The translations under genes and the position numbers were made by a program. A stretch of 42,742 nucleotides of DNA from a virus: positions 1 through 42,742 of IMG/VR virus record IMGVR_UViG_3300045988_096127; one strand, written 5' to 3'. This document shows, piece by piece, positions 36,868 to 42,558 of the stretch (its first letter is position 1; every line of letters begins with the position of its first letter). Under the pieces are notes generated by a model. It did not search any database and was not told the DNA's origin. It saw only the letters and a program-made list of their open reading frames with translations.

Positions 36868-37140
36868 TCAGGGTGCTATTTTTTTGTCCTCAAATTCTCC
36901 AGGGAACTCAACATCAGCGTCAAGCTTGTCCTTCCGGCGGATCATGTAAAAGTATGCTTTCCGCTTTTCTTCCCGGCGTTTCTCCACATCCATGATCGCA
37001 ACTCCCACAAGTGCAACCAAAGCTCCGAGTGCCATAGCGATTAATAATAAGATGTACTTTTCACCATCCGCATCGAGCATTCCGCAAAGAAACATAATTC
37101 CAAGCCCTACCGCTATAAATACTTTACTGATCTGCTTCAT
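36868..37140 (-). CDS. Small membrane protein (two TM helices)
   Basis: 90 aa with the TM segments 'VFIAVGLGIMFLCGML' and 'LLLIAMALGALVALVGVAIM'. Confidence 0.6.
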   Translation of the reverse strand: MKQISKVFIAVGLGIMFLCGMLDADGEKYILLLIAMALGALVALVGVAIMDVEKRREEKRKAYFYMIRRKDKLDADVEFPGEFEDKKIAP

Positions 37141-37921: not shown

Positions 37922-38036
37922 GTTTGCACTTTGCAAACTCTGATTATAATATAATTGCTTTTCGTAAACTTGTCAATAGTTTTCTTTACAAATTGCAAAC
38001 TTTTTAATTGACATGTTTACGCGTGCTATATATAAT
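37922..38036. promoter_or_regulatory. Genetic switch: back-to-back promoters and palindromic operators
   Basis: Plus-strand promoter: TTGACA (38008..38013), 17-nt spacer, TATAAT (38031..38036). Minus-strand promoter: TTGACA (37971..37976), 17-nt spacer, TATATT (37948..37953). Palindrome GTTTGCA-N3-TGCAAAC at 37922..37938, with a degenerate copy at 37984..38000. The 14-nt inverted pair CGTAAACtTGTCAA / TTGACAtGTTTACG embeds both -35 boxes. Confidence 0.7.
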
Positions 38037-38059
38037 CAAGGTAACAGGAGGTGCTAATC

Positions 38060-38368
38060 ATGGGAGACAACTTTAATGAGAATTTGAAAAATGCAAGAAT
38101 ACGAAAAGGAATGTCACAAAAAGATGTTGCAGAAGAAATAGGTGTTGCAAAATCTACATATTCACTATATGAAAGTGGAAACCGTGAGCCAAATGTTCAA
38201 ACAATAAAGAAAATTGCAGATGTATTAAGTGTTTCAGCAGATGATTTGCTTGGTTTAAATGAAGAACCTCAAACTCTAGCAGCTCACTTTACTGGTGCCG
38301 AATATACAGATGAAGAATTAGACGAAATCAAACAATTTGCTGAATTTGTAAAAGCAAAAAGAAAGTAG
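38060..38368 (+). CDS. CI-like XRE-family repressor (ImmR-type)
   Basis: 'LKNARIRKGMSQKDVAEEIGVAKSTYSLYESGNREPNVQTIKKIADVLSV'. The ATG follows AGGAGG by 8 nt. It is paired with an ImmA-like gene. Confidence 0.85.
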   Translation: MGDNFNENLKNARIRKGMSQKDVAEEIGVAKSTYSLYESGNREPNVQTIKKIADVLSVSADDLLGLNEEPQTLAAHFTGAEYTDEELDEIKQFAEFVKAKRK

Positions 38369-38421: not shown

Positions 38422-38892
38422 ATGAACACTTTTGAAGAATTGCAAGATGAAGCCTGCAAGGATGGTATAGAAGTTATAGAAAATTATCCATTCACCAGCG
38501 ATCGAATAGAGGGGTTATATGTGGACAGCACGATCGCTCTGAGTAAAGGTCTTACAACATGTGCAGAAAAAAGCTGCGTACTCGCTGAGGAACTCGGACA
38601 TCATTACACCGCATCTGGAGATATTATAGATCAGTCAACCGCAGAAAACAGAAAGCAAGAACTTCGTGGAAGAATCTGGGCTTACAACAAGCAGATCGGA
38701 TTGACAGGGCTTGTGAATGCCTACCGCAGCCACTGCCAGAATGCACACGAAGTTGCAGAATATTTAGGTGTTACGGATGAGTTTCTTGCTGATTCTCTGG
38801 ATTATTACCGGAGCAAGTACGGATGCTGTGTCCAGATTGATAATTATATTATATTTTTCGAACCGGCAGTTGCTGTTATGGAATTAATTTAG
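38422..38892 (+). CDS. ImmA/IrrE-like (COG2856) metallopeptidase-family protein
   Basis: 'LAEELGHHYT' is an EExxH variant of HExxH. 'RGRIWAYNKQI' and the position after the XRE repressor fit ImmR/ImmA modules. Confidence 0.7.
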   Translation: MNTFEELQDEACKDGIEVIENYPFTSDRIEGLYVDSTIALSKGLTTCAEKSCVLAEELGHHYTASGDIIDQSTAENRKQELRGRIWAYNKQIGLTGLVNAYRSHCQNAHEVAEYLGVTDEFLADSLDYYRSKYGCCVQIDNYIIFFEPAVAVMELI

Positions 38893-38942
38893 TAATTTGA
38901 ATGTTCCACCATATAAATTATCCACCAAAGGGAGAACTACAT

Positions 38943-39833
38943 ATGCATAAGCTTTTTTTTAAACAACTTCAAAAGTTAATTGGTGTATTTTTTCTATTAG
39001 AAACACTTATCGGCATCCTAATTATTGTAAAAAATATTACCAATATTATTCAGGTAATTGCCGCTGCAATAGTATCAATAATGTTTGGTACACTTTCATT
39101 CTTGCTTTTAAAAAATGATTCATCAAAAAAGAAAGTTAAAAATTCAGATGCAATATGCGCTGACAAGCCACAGGAACGAGATTATTCTAAGCAAACGGAA
39201 TATGTCCAAGACGGTAACGTAATATACCGTGCAGATGGTAAAAAAATCTCTGATGAAGAAGTGCCATACCTTATGCAAGTAGGATACGAAAATGCTTTGG
39301 CTGAGGAGAAAAATAGTTCCAACCCAAAGTTTCATAGATCATTTAAGGAAGAGGAATTATCTTACTCTTTTGAAAATAAATACTATAACGAGATTGCTAA
39401 AAGAATAGAAAAATTTGAAACTCCATACCATAATTCCTTTTCAGAGCAGGACTTGTCAAAAAAAATTATGTTATTGGAACAATCTATTACGGAATTCGAT
39501 AAATGTAAAAATTTCTGCTATTCAAAAGGAAAAGGCGGCACAATCTATTTTCAGGACATGTATGAATACTTACACAATACACATAATGATTGCTTTTCTT
39601 ACCGAGATATGATTTTAGGCAGTCTGGAAGAATGTTATTACGAACGAGACGAATTGATTCCCGAAATAAAAAATGCAATTTCCAATCACAATGGAATATT
39701 ACAGAAAAACATCTATGCAGAATTGCCAGATTTTCAAAGAAGCGACATTCAACGCATGCTCCGCAAGTTAGAAAGCGAAAATGTAATAACACGAATAAAA
39801 AAATCTGGCTCTTATGAATTACACCTTAATTAA
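38943..39833 (+). CDS. Hypothetical membrane-anchored protein with a C-terminal wHTH-like segment (lysogeny cargo gene 1)
   Basis: Start at 'MHKLFFKQ', with AAAGGGAG upstream. It has two N-terminal TM helices, a Lys-rich linker and the C-terminus 'RSDIQRMLRKLESENVITRIKKSGSYELHL'. Confidence 0.65.
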   Translation: MHKLFFKQLQKLIGVFFLLETLIGILIIVKNITNIIQVIAAAIVSIMFGTLSFLLLKNDSSKKKVKNSDAICADKPQERDYSKQTEYVQDGNVIYRADGKKISDEEVPYLMQVGYENALAEEKNSSNPKFHRSFKEEELSYSFENKYYNEIAKRIEKFETPYHNSFSEQDLSKKIMLLEQSITEFDKCKNFCYSKGKGGTIYFQDMYEYLHNTHNDCFSYRDMILGSLEECYYERDELIPEIKNAISNHNGILQKNIYAELPDFQRSDIQRMLRKLESENVITRIKKSGSYELHLN

Positions 39834-39855
39834 AAATTATTATTAGGAGGTCTTT

Positions 39856-41310
39856 ATGGGATTACTTGATATATTTCGAATTTCTCAAATAAAAGAGGAA
39901 AATGAGCGTTTAAAATCTGATAATGCAACTCTACAAGCTAAAATAAATTCTCTAGGAGTAAATGAATACTACGAAACCAAACAAAAAATTGAAGAATTAG
40001 AACATGAAGCTTCTACCTCTTTAGAAAAAACAAATTCGGATATTGCATCAAATAACACAATTATTTTCAATTTAAGGCAAGAAATTTCCGAACTAGAAGA
40101 AAAAAATTCTAAACTTCAAAAATCAGTTGCTTCTCAGGAACGGAAAGTATCAAAATGTAAAGAACTATATAAAAGTATTGATTATGCAATTAATAATTTT
40201 TTTAATTTAGATATTCCATATAGCAATTGTAAGCTTTCCACCAAAGATTTTGATGATCTAGAACTTATTTCACCTTCTGTCACATTAAAATTACATTGTA
40301 TGGATGTGAAAAGCTTAAGAAAAGCATATAAAGAAAATGAAAAACAAATATCTAAATTACTCGACCAGTACTCCTCACGTTATACAACTAAAGCAAATAA
40401 GTCCATTTACAATCTAATGGTCATAGCTTTACGTGCTGAAATTCAAAATATTTTATATAATTTGAAATATGAAAAACTTGAAAAATCCATCGATGACGTG
40501 AAAACTATTTCGGCGAAATATCTAAAAATTGCAGGAGAAGGAAACCAAAGTATAGCTGGTACTTTAACAAAGTTCATTGGCGAAATTGAATATCTTTTTA
40601 TAAATGCTGTAAAAATTGAATACAACTATTATGTAAAAAAAGAACAGGCTCGTCAGGAACAGCTTGCTATACGTGAACAAATGCGTCAAGAAGCTGAAGA
40701 ACGAAAAGCTCTGGAAAATGAACGTAAAAAAATTGCTAAAGAAGAAGAAAAATATAATAATGAAATTTCAAAAATCCAAGAAACTATTGCTCAAACCACT
40801 GATCAATCAGACTTAGAAAAATTAAAAGCAAGGATTCTTGAATTACAAGAGCAATTGGGACAAGTAATTATTAAAAAAGAAGAAATTACCAATTTACAAA
40901 ATGGTAAAGCCGGTACTGTTTATGTAATCAGTAATCTTGGATCGTTTGGAGAAGATGTATTCAAAATCGGTATGACAAGACGCCTTGATCCACAGGATCG
41001 TATTAATGAACTTGGAAGTGCCAGTGTTCCCTTTAAATTTGATGTACATAGTTTTATCTTCTCTGATGATGCTGTCTCACTTGAAAACAAAATGCATCAA
41101 ATATTAAATGATAGACGAGTAAATAAAGTAAATCTTCGAAAGGAATTTTTCAAGATATCAATCGATGAATTAGAGACTTTGGTCGAAGAAATTGATCCTT
41201 CTGCGGAATTTAATAAAACAATGATTGCAGAAGAATTCAGACAATCTATTTCTTCTGATGAAGTTTACAGTTCAGATTATTCCTTAGATGATGACCCAGA
41301 AGATGAATAA
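39856..41310 (+). CDS. DUF4041 coiled-coil plus T5orf172/MUG113 (GIY-YIG-superfamily) domain protein (lysogeny cargo gene 2)
   Basis: AGGAGG RBS. 'EQARQEQLAIREQMRQEAEERK' is coiled coil. The C-terminus 'GTVYVISNLGSFGEDVFKIGMTRRLDPQDRINELGSASVPFKFDVH...NLRKEFF' is the T5orf172 signature. Confidence 0.8.
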   Translation: MGLLDIFRISQIKEENERLKSDNATLQAKINSLGVNEYYETKQKIEELEHEASTSLEKTNSDIASNNTIIFNLRQEISELEEKNSKLQKSVASQERKVSKCKELYKSIDYAINNFFNLDIPYSNCKLSTKDFDDLELISPSVTLKLHCMDVKSLRKAYKENEKQISKLLDQYSSRYTTKANKSIYNLMVIALRAEIQNILYNLKYEKLEKSIDDVKTISAKYLKIAGEGNQSIAGTLTKFIGEIEYLFINAVKIEYNYYVKKEQARQEQLAIREQMRQEAEERKALENERKKIAKEEEKYNNEISKIQETIAQTTDQSDLEKLKARILELQEQLGQVIIKKEEITNLQNGKAGTVYVISNLGSFGEDVFKIGMTRRLDPQDRINELGSASVPFKFDVHSFIFSDDAVSLENKMHQILNDRRVNKVNLRKEFFKISIDELETLVEEIDPSAEFNKTMIAEEFRQSISSDEVYSSDYSLDDDPEDE

Positions 41311-41397
41311 TTAAAATTGCCTCCAGTACTGGAATACCAGAGGCAATCCTTCTGAATGATACAGAAGTTCTCACAAAATATATTGTATCATTCGGAG

Positions 41398-41445
41398 CAG
41401 CCAACCGCAAGCGGAACAGATGTTCTCTGTTGGCTGTTATTTTTA
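41398..41445 (+). terminator. Intrinsic terminator upstream of int
   Basis: CAGCCAAC (41398..41405) ... GTTGGCTG (41429..41436) followed by TTATTTTTA. Two further hairpins precede it (41316..41347 and 41354..41393). Confidence 0.6.
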
Positions 41446-41472
41446 TACTCAAAAATAGAAAGGATGGTACAT

Positions 41473-42558
41473 ATGGCACGAAGAAAAAAACACCAAAAGC
41501 TCCCGAACGGCTTCGGATCAATAAAATATCTCGGTAAAGGACGCTATAAGCCGTATGGCGTATACCCACCAGTAACTGAATACACCTCAAAAGGACCTGT
41601 CACACCGAAAGCTCTCGCCTACGTTGAGACATGGGATGAAGGTTATGAGATTCTGGCAGCACGTAAGTTGGAGAACGAGGGAAAAATTAAAATACAGAAT
41701 GGAGTTTATATTGACCGTACTCCAACCTTTAAAGAAGTATATGAGGATTTCTATAAAGAGAAGTACCGGAACGAACTGCGTGAAGGAAAGAAAAAAACCT
41801 CCTCCATGTATTCTACCCAGGCAGCTTTTAAAAACTCCTCTTCCATTCATGACATACAATTTGGTCAGATTAAATATAAAGATTTACAAGACATCCTTAA
41901 TAATTGTGAGTTAAAGCATTCATCACAAGAATTAATAGTGTCTCTAATGCATCAGATGTACGAATATGCGATTAAATATGATATAGTGGATAAAGACTAC
42001 TCTTCTGCACTTTTTATCCCTGTATTGGACGATGACGAAAGAGGAATGCCATTTACTGATGAAGAATTAAAAATACTTTGGAATAATAAAGATAATCTTA
42101 CTGTACAAATGCTATTAATTATGTGCTACAGCGGATTCAGGATTGCCGCCTTTAATGATATGGAAGTAAATCTACCAAAGAAATATTTTAAAGGCGGAGT
42201 AAAAACACAGGCTGGAAAAGATCGAATTGTACCAATCCATTCAGCAATTTATAACATGGTGAAATCCAGATGCAATGGTAAGGATCTACTTGGCTGCACG
42301 ACTGCTACTTTCCGTAATAATATGTATAATACTTTAACTGCTCTAAAAATACCAACTGCAGTAACAGGAGAAAAACATACTCCTCATGATTGCAGGCATA
42401 CATTTTCATATCTTTGTGAACGTTATAAAGTAAACGACAATGACAGAAAACGAATGCTTGGTCATTCATTCGGTAATGATGTAACAAATGGCGTATATGG
42501 TCACAGAACGACCGAGGAACTTAGGACAGAAATTGAAAAAATAAAGACACCTTTTTAA
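41473..42558 (+). CDS. int: Tyrosine site-specific integrase
   Basis: Start at 'MARRKKHQKLPNGFGSIKYLG', an arm-binding-type N-terminus. Catalytic motifs: 'HDCRHTF', 'MLGHS' and 'GVYGHRT'. Confidence 0.9.
   Translation: MARRKKHQKLPNGFGSIKYLGKGRYKPYGVYPPVTEYTSKGPVTPKALAYVETWDEGYEILAARKLENEGKIKIQNGVYIDRTPTFKEVYEDFYKEKYRNELREGKKKTSSMYSTQAAFKNSSSIHDIQFGQIKYKDLQDILNNCELKHSSQELIVSLMHQMYEYAIKYDIVDKDYSSALFIPVLDDDERGMPFTDEELKILWNNKDNLTVQMLLIMCYSGFRIAAFNDMEVNLPKKYFKGGVKTQAGKDRIVPIHSAIYNMVKSRCNGKDLLGCTTATFRNNMYNTLTALKIPTAVTGEKHTPHDCRHTFSYLCERYKVNDNDRKRMLGHSFGNDVTNGVYGHRTTEELRTEIEKIKTPF

Follow-up and report, generated by a model that had tools for sequence, protein, structure and literature searches.

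An anchor-less relative of the SNIPE nuclease and a neighbouring membrane protein are probably independent cargo in the repressor-to-integrase interval of a temperate phage

Introduction

PD-lambda-1 is a validated single-gene defence from a functional screen in Escherichia coli (Vassallo et al. 2022, PMC9519451). Later work described it under the name SNIPE, as a protein bound to the membrane that combines DUF4041 with a GIY-YIG nuclease (Saxton et al. 2025, bioRxiv 10.1101/2025.11.03.685801). In SNIPE, which an N-terminal transmembrane (TM) helix anchors in the inner membrane, DNA binding resides in the DUF4041 region, which probably also binds the tape-measure protein of incoming siphoviruses, and the nuclease cleaves phage DNA during injection, a direct form of defence; the E414A substitution abolishes defence, and deletion of the TM helix from the E. 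coli protein yields a toxic enzyme (bioRxiv 10.1101/2025.11.03.685801). The same study reports that 34% of SNIPE homologues have no TM helix and proposes alternative membrane-targeting N-termini for them (DivIVA-like, PH, DUF4428, or none). Here we analyse a very probable TM-less homologue, gene 2 (484 amino acids (aa); 39856..41310, + strand), together with the gene that precedes it, gene 1 (296 aa; 38943..39833, + strand), in IMG/VR virus record IMGVR_UViG_3300045988_096127 (positions 1 to 42,742). The whole stretch of 42,742 nucleotides (nt) is referred to as the window.

Superinfection exclusion genes of Firmicutes prophages, such as Sie2009 of lactococcal phages and Ltp of Streptococcus thermophilus TP-J34, are found in the interval between repressor and integrase, which is also where gene 1 and gene 2 lie. 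An initial annotation of the window, made from the sequence alone, took the two genes for an uncharacterised two-component anti-phage or abortive-infection module. Both open reading frames (ORFs) are present as it described them, and matches to HTH_3, phrog_87 and an integrase flank the pair, in agreement with its placement of the genes as lysogeny-module cargo between ImmR/ImmA and int on the strand of the repressor operon. The analysis presented below leads to a different view of what the genes are. We put at about 0.8 the probability that gene 2 is an anchor-less SNIPE relative and gene 1 an unrelated neighbour, the two being independent cargo cassettes in a repressor-to-integrase hotspot.

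Gene 2 very probably belongs to the SNIPE/PD-lambda-1 family

The gene 2 protein matched the PADLOC PD-Lambda-1 profile PDLC03976 with an E-value of 1.8e-80 over residues 11-469 (profile positions 26-474 of 491), and the second PD-Lambda-1 profile, PDLC03977, matched at 8.7e-79. The whole protein was covered by phrog_1847 (E 5.7e-102). The T5orf172/MUG113 domain, a member of the GIY-YIG superfamily that had already been recognised in the initial annotation, was located at residues 353-446 by PF13455 (E 1.8e-19) and PF10544 (E 1.1e-15). Residues 272-466 share 45% identity with XSB42081.1, a protein of the E. coli prophage PhiR26_1 that is annotated as PD-lambda-1. Pairwise alignment with this protein, together with the translation, pairs Glu410 of gene 2 (in 'AVSLENKMH'; codon 41083..41085, + strand) with Glu414 ('APSLEKKLH'), which is the residue replaced in the inactive SNIPE variant if the SNIPE paper numbers its protein as XSB42081.1 is numbered. 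Glu410 was invariant in an alignment of 56 sequences.

The AlphaFold2 (AF2) model of gene 2, with a predicted local distance difference test (pLDDT) score of 70.8, consists of long helices at residues 3-115, a helical domain at ~138-230, linker helices at 231-349 and an alpha/beta domain at 353-454, with an acidic tail after the nuclease domain; the elongated layout is SNIPE-like. The 'about 330 aa of coiled coil' described previously is recovered in the long helices (3-115 and 231-349) but is interrupted by the helical domain between them. A fold search with the whole model returned only coiled-coil and helical-bundle noise. A weak resemblance of residues 205-281 (40468-40698) to residues ~102-179 of the OXA-10 class D beta-lactamase (E 0.0028 in NCBIfam, E 0.012-0.05 in a sequence search of the PDB) falls in a helical region and was set aside as probably due to chance.

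Gene 2 resembles SNIPE in being a single, prophage-borne gene of comparable length (484 versus 500 aa) with the catalytic glutamate kept, in the order of its parts (an N-terminal targeting region, a helical/DUF4041 region, a long linker helix and a C-terminal T5orf172-type GIY-YIG nuclease) and in the 45% identity of linker and nuclease. It differs from SNIPE in having an MGLxDIF motif on a coiled coil of ~110 residues and no N-terminal TM helix, in an N-terminal half that BLAST could not align with the E. coli protein, and in its host, which is of the Gram-positive gut Clostridia type (Lachnospiraceae-like), so that a ManYZ-type partner is not expected. We consider it very probable that gene 2 belongs to the SNIPE/PD-lambda-1 family, and the proposal that it encodes a defence nuclease of the DUF4041/T5orf172 type is upheld by the PDLC03976 match. 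The same proposal held that the architecture was uncharacterised and had no assigned mechanism. The type is in fact already catalogued, as 'PD-Lambda-1' in PADLOC and DefenseFinder, and its mechanism has been published as that of SNIPE; abortive infection, the other suggestion made for the locus, disagrees with the description of SNIPE as direct defence.

T5orf172/MUG113 domains are also common in lytic phages and in eukaryotes, and gene 2 might on that account serve the phage itself, as a homing-type or replication/recombination GIY-YIG nuclease of the kind assumed for the T5orf172 proteins of lytic phages. Such a role is highly improbable, given that the full-length match is to a defence-validated PD-Lambda-1 model and reaches well beyond the nuclease domain, and that every context examined was an immunity-to-int slot, beside Abi_2, HicAB, NYN or other defence-type cargo. 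At one related locus (L157, 1916-3299) the gene 2 homologue is broken into two ORFs of 141 and 318 aa, likely a frameshift or a pseudogene.

The N-terminus of gene 2 has no membrane anchor and is strongly conserved

No TM helix was found in gene 2, whose Kyte-Doolittle values (19-residue windows) peak at 0.91, as compared with 2.45-2.49 for the hydrophobic segments of gene 1. AF2 predicts an all-helical N-terminus, in which a helix of amphipathic or coiled character starts at residue 3. Gene 2 therefore falls in the class of SNIPE homologues with no predicted TM helix and no globular N-terminal domain. Its subfamily is large, with more than 7,000 matching database proteins, and constitutes a very abundant gut-Clostridia prophage group that is devoid of a TM anchor.

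The N-terminus of this TM-less subfamily is strongly conserved as MG[LIF][LF]DIF[KR]IS.IK.EN, of which residues 1-16 of gene 2, MGLLDIFRISQIKEEN, are an MGLxDIF-type example; neither the MG[LIF][LF]DIF motif nor the context of the gene 2 subfamily appears in the SNIPE paper. The motif (39856-39915, residues 1-20 of gene 2) is kept in a 33%-identical, PF13250-positive subfamily as well, and it is conserved regardless of whether gene 1 is present. Profiles of DivIVA, PH and PspA did not match gene 2. The amphipathic moment of residues 1-11 is moderate (0.42) and not among the top values of the protein. Tentatively, we suggest that the N-terminus may supply localisation or auto-inhibition as a restraint in place of the TM helix.

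By eye, the variant MGIFDIF resembles the N-terminus of E. coli PspA, MGIFSRF, which is membrane-binding; this is a lead without profile support. A PspA/Vipp1-like N-terminus was not adopted as an assignment for gene 2, since hhalign gave a probability of 4% and aligned a different region, and Pfam PspA_IM30 did not match.

Gene 1 and gene 2 occur independently of each other

The two genes are closely spaced in the window. As the initial annotation had stated, gene 2 starts 22 nt past the stop of gene 1, behind a ribosome-binding site (RBS) AGGAGG at 39845-39850. Elsewhere the two families separate. In sister phages with a gene 1 that is 93-98% identical, other cargo stands before int, either PDC-M24A/B (DUF6978 + DUF1828/1829) or pairs of unknown type. 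Behind more distant homologues of gene 1 stand Abi_2, PDC-M11A, or PIN or HicAB toxin-antitoxin genes, and about 10 lineages have a tyrosine or serine recombinase immediately after the gene 1 homologue. Gene 2 has relatives, at 95%, 79%, 75%, 75%, 75% and 73% identity, that directly follow repressor/ImmA genes with no gene 1, and the same arrangement is seen for P0434, whose PF13250-positive subfamily shares ~30-35% identity with gene 2. A tblastn check confirmed these relatives without gene 1.

The best 80 loci, each taken with ~4 kb of flank, were then drawn from 562 viral stretches that encode relatives of gene 2. The gene 1 family profile had no match in 79 of these best 80 loci, and the sole match, L080, belongs to the lineage of the window. 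No other conserved neighbour of gene 2 was detected across seven sampled lineages and the best 80 of the 562 viral loci. The occurrence patterns indicate that gene 1 and gene 2 do not form a two-gene system and that gene 2 would act as a single gene. The two-component module is thus not sustained: copies of gene 1 that are 93-98% identical are accompanied by other cargo, copies of gene 2 that are 75-99% identical have no gene 1 beside them, and the proposed new two-gene system dissolves. We ascribe the adjacency of the two families to a shared insertion slot.

Several points weigh against independence of the two genes and against the SNIPE assignment. The gap in the window is only 22 nt. Co-occurrence of the two families, which had been expected for a genuine module, does extend beyond this phage, to two further lineages (L003-6 and L067-68), although independent occurrences are far more numerous. 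An anchor-less copy needs some restraint because the E. coli enzyme becomes toxic once its TM helix is removed, and a neighbouring membrane protein is a tempting candidate for that restraint. Any function given to gene 1 is inferred, and the defence activity and mechanism of gene 2 are extrapolated from a Gram-negative prototype. Last, Pfam DUF4041 (PF13250, named 'SNIPE' in newer Pfam data) had no match in gene 2 even at E<=10, and PF13250 is absent from the precomputed domains of all 120 closest gene 2 homologues. The DUF4041-like region claimed for gene 2 is therefore not recovered by Pfam, but it does find support in the PADLOC PD-Lambda-1 profile, which extends across the DUF4041-equivalent stretch where AF2 places a helical domain, and in a full-length alignment in which residues ~189-255 coincide with the PF13250 match (residues 144-199) of a 33%-identical Clostridia homologue.

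The first three of these points could be accommodated by a facultative two-part SNIPE, in which gene 1 anchors or restrains the nuclease when both are present and its TM hairpin replaces the missing helix. We regard this as very improbable, and such help from gene 1 is evidently not a requirement. Gene 2 does lack the helix whose deletion renders SNIPE toxic in E. coli, the two genes share an operon with a 22-nt gap, and they are adjacent in three lineages (the window, L003-6 and L067-68); neither order nor spacing is conserved, however, as the gap in L003 is 110 nt and the gene order in L067 is reversed. Gene 1 is missing at 79 of the 80 best viral loci with gene 2 relatives, copies of gene 2 that are 95-99% identical reside in backbones without gene 1, near-identical copies of gene 1 carry unrelated cargo or none, and the N-terminal motif of gene 2 is kept with or without gene 1, all of which argue for the two genes being independent cargo.

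Cassette boundaries and alternative cargo

Nucleotide comparison delimits a SNIPE cassette at 39834..41318 (+ strand) that comprises the RBS AGGAGG, gene 2 and a few bases past its stop; no promoter was detected within 39834-41318 itself. Positions 39834-41318 of the window are 92.7% identical in nucleotide sequence to L056 4978-6464, and positions 39832-41316 are 98% identical to L081 3976-5461, where the backbones of L056 and L081 are unrelated to that of the window and have no gene 1. When sister phages carrying other cargo were compared, homology stopped at 39829 and resumed at 41349/41380. In L063, related immunity genes run straight into SNIPE, and homology with the window ends at 38905, just past immA. 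The loss of homology at 38905 in related phages without gene 1 indicates that gene 1 is an independent cassette as well.

In the slot that corresponds to window 39834-41318, three sister phages have two-gene cargo, with products of about 311-315 and 199-202 aa (L011, 6916-8440), about 282-286 and 137 aa (L017, 3334-4614) and about 290-294 and 214 aa (L018, 6968-8447). These pairs had no PADLOC match and nothing above Pfam cut-offs, two of the small proteins giving only sub-threshold Pfam hits (DUF805, E 7e-4; HHD_RTEL1, E 0.003). The pairs, in each of which the second protein seems to be associated with the membrane, are candidates for new defence or exclusion modules. In a distant relative (L027, 6616-7314), a 232-aa protein with a lipoprotein-type signal (MKKIITLMALALTLTACGG) lies between a gene 1-like ORF and int; it had no Pfam match and is reminiscent of the Ltp-type exclusion lipoproteins.

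Gene 1 encodes a predicted membrane-anchored protein with an exchangeable C-terminal part

The gene 1 ORF could start at 38901 or 38943 and ends at 39833. The 38943 start is favoured, as homologues begin at the equivalent Met and GGGAG is located upstream. Two stretches of the protein are hydrophobic (Kyte-Doolittle values of 2.45 and 2.49 in 19-residue windows), and its AF2 model (pLDDT 89.9) shows a TM hairpin at residues 2-56, a Lys-rich disordered linker at 62-83, a beta-hairpin at 87-96, a helical domain at 106-247 and a winged helix at 254-295 (H-H-H-beta-beta, pLDDT >95). The two TM helices, Lys-rich linker and winged-helix-like end that had been noted from the sequence are all reproduced by these analyses. 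By the positive-inside rule the hairpin is predicted to be N-in/C-in, which would leave the soluble part in the cytoplasm.

The helical domain carries the invariant polar motifs SxNPKFHRT, KGKGGTIYFQD and HNS..FSY, and no fold match to it was obtained; searches of the PDB and BFVD recovered only the winged helix of ~60 residues. Foldseek related the winged helix to YtcD, SrnR, HlyU, BlaI and SSV1 F-93 with probabilities of 0.99-1.0 and E-values of only 0.09-0.6, and it was not matched by Pfam HTH models. No significant family was found for gene 1 in Pfam, PHROG, NCBIfam or PADLOC, where the noise below threshold consisted of STM3941 (E 0.007), PDC-M02A (E 0.017) and, on the winged helix, phrog_1324 (E 0.008). 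A profile search of the PDB gave nothing. Among 50,697 cultured phage records, tblastn detected no homologue of gene 1 and megablast no match to the locus. A word-indexed search yielded 198 homologues, and a profile search yielded 793 clusters at 50% identity; the family is widespread in prophages, unannotated, and comprises ~800 clusters.

Some relatives of gene 1 have a different C-terminal part beyond residue ~140. In L020 (5959-7215), L033 (5887-7098) and L029 (5437-6591) the TM hairpin and residues ~82-140 are kept, and a SAP domain (PF02037, E 1e-6 to 3e-11) replaces the helical domain and winged helix. The swap implies that the exchangeable part is a DNA-binding head. Our best guess is that gene 1 provides a stand-alone membrane function, expressed in the lysogen and involving DNA binding, and that it is not a partner of SNIPE.

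Within this frame, superinfection exclusion or defence is possible yet doubtful as the role of gene 1. The resemblance to Sie2009 and Ltp lies in genomic position, in the strand, which is presumably expressed in the lysogen, and in membrane association. Gene 1 has no sequence or profile similarity to these proteins, however, and it is larger, with a conserved part that is modelled to lie in the cytoplasm and to bind DNA; Ltp, by contrast, is a lipoprotein at the cell surface. A comparable concept underlies Kiwa (KwaA/KwaB) and Zorya, in which a module that binds or cuts DNA is kept at the inner membrane, the point of phage DNA entry. In contrast to these systems, gene 1 is a single polypeptide without a nuclease or motor domain, and it has no homology to them in PADLOC.

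It is rather unlikely that gene 1 acts as a regulator, tethered to the membrane, that controls the lysogeny switch or int/xis expression and might for example couple the state of the envelope to induction. The location of gene 1, always in the repressor operon and directly after the repressor or ImmA, would suit such a role, as would a C-terminal winged helix of the ArsR/MarR/BlaI type and polar motifs (NPKFHR, KGKGGxIYFQD) that suggest a ligand or partner site. Yet gene 1 is dispensable, closely related immunity modules such as that of L063 being without it; its head can be exchanged for SAP, which is not a typical domain of sequence-specific regulators; and the 50,697 cultured phage records hold no homologue.

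Operon layout and flanking genes

The window is a temperate tailed-phage genome that is close to complete. Genes for endolysin, tail fibre, baseplate, tape measure, tail sheath, major head, portal and terminase occupy the minus strand, and a short plus-strand block at the right end comprises an HTH_3 repressor, an ImmA-like metalloprotease, gene 1, gene 2 and a tyrosine integrase. The ImmR/CI-like repressor (38051..38368, +) was identified by Pfam HTH_3 (E 2.8e-18) and the ImmA/IrrE-like metalloprotease (38422..38892, +) by the phrog_87 metallo-protease family (E 8.2e-31), the match of the latter protein to Pfam Peptidase_M78 being below the cut-off (E 0.0041). The integrase (41473..42558, +; ATG at 41473) matched Pfam Phage_integrase at E 2.6e-5 with 24.5 bits, which is under the 27.1-bit cut-off.

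A site scan placed a promoter-like sequence, TTGACA-17-TATAAT, upstream of the repressor operon at 38008..38036 (+), agreeing with the sigma-70 consensus at 12/12 positions. A divergent 11/12 promoter-like site at 37976-37948 (-) is oriented toward a cro-like gene. We infer that 38008-38036 is the lysogenic promoter, predicted to drive immR-immA-gene1-gene2. The gap between immA and gene 1 is 50 nt and that between gene 1 and gene 2 is 22 nt, and a terminator scan found no terminator-like site between gene 1 and gene 2; because the gaps are short and no such site intervenes, the two genes are assigned to one operon, and their co-transcription from this promoter in the lysogen is a reasonable prediction. 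In the early leftward operon, a 90-aa protein with two TM segments (MKQISKVFIAVGLGIMFL...; 36868-37140, -) is kept in sister phages.

A conserved leader precedes the recombinase gene

Three hairpins are present 3' of gene 2, at 41318-41345, 41351-41396 and 41397-41437; folding of the three-hairpin region gave a minimum free energy of -49.6 kcal/mol (z -5.4). Hairpin 1 (41318..41345, from folding and the terminator scan) is never missing and has an A-run ahead of it each time; its sequence varies between phages. The third hairpin is followed by TTATTTTTAT and is terminator-like on the + strand. Three hairpins including a terminator had been reported ahead of int; the hairpins and the TTATTTTTAT after the third are there, but the only one flagged by the terminator scan is hairpin 1, on the minus strand. 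No minus-strand gene enters hairpin 1 in the window, even though it scores as an intrinsic terminator of that strand.

Comparison and folding together define a non-coding recombinase leader at 41349..41475 (+), made up of hairpin 2, hairpin 3, TTATTTTTAT, the int RBS and the ATG. The leader is ~100-125 nt in length, lies directly upstream of the recombinase gene and contains the invariant blocks ATTGTATCATTC, GCAAGC and GCTGTTATTTTT.TAC. It was also seen in L010, L011, L017, L020, L021, L033-35, L056, L063 and L160-L260, and its core pattern occurs in at least 118 IMG/VR contigs. Among 79 occurrences, 43 precede a tyrosine recombinase ORF and 26 a serine recombinase ORF, with one more before an unclassified ORF with an integrase-like start and nine too near a contig end; the integrase of the window was one of the BLASTP references by which downstream ORFs were classed as tyrosine recombinases. 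The two hairpins of the leader are ~85% paired, with a few G-C/G-U/A-U series, and no Rfam family corresponds to the leader. RNAalifold, run on 10 sequences, proposed that TTGTATCATTC pairs with the int RBS as an anti-Shine-Dalgarno element, a pairing that is without covariation and is lost upstream of serine recombinases. The leader may act as a terminator/leader that controls int, and it is the right-hand anchor of the cargo slot.

Discussion

The mechanism that we propose places two promoter-less cassettes in an immunity-to-int hotspot, where both would be read from the lysogenic promoter. Gene 2, like SNIPE, would cut phage DNA where it enters the cell and so protect the lysogen. By analogy with the prototype, we lean toward the view that this mechanism applies to the TM-less Gram-positive version. 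The MG[LIF][LF]DIF motif on a long coiled coil would then give localisation or restraint where SNIPE uses a TM helix. Gene 1 would hold its helical domain and winged helix on the cytoplasmic face of the membrane by means of the TM hairpin. A further reading, speculative and rather less probable, is that gene 1 represents a new class of prophage membrane-anchored DNA-binding proteins, composed of a TM hairpin and an exchangeable head, that act alone in the lysogen on the cytoplasmic side of the membrane, where they might, for example, capture or block foreign DNA as it arrives.

What is at stake in gene 2 is how an anchor-less SNIPE is localised and restrained, because removal of the anchor makes the E. 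coli enzyme autotoxic, and the conserved MGLxDIF N-terminus makes this question directly testable. Gene 1 marks an unannotated family of ~800 clusters in the classic position of exclusion genes, with a main domain that has no fold relative; if it does represent the new class, it would amount to the SNIPE logic without a nuclease. The leader found upstream of both tyrosine and serine recombinases is an element outside Rfam. The immunity-to-int interval, bounded by gene 1 and the int leader, swaps cassettes among near-identical phages and, should the new-class reading of gene 1 be true, would readily supply more defence cassettes of unknown type.

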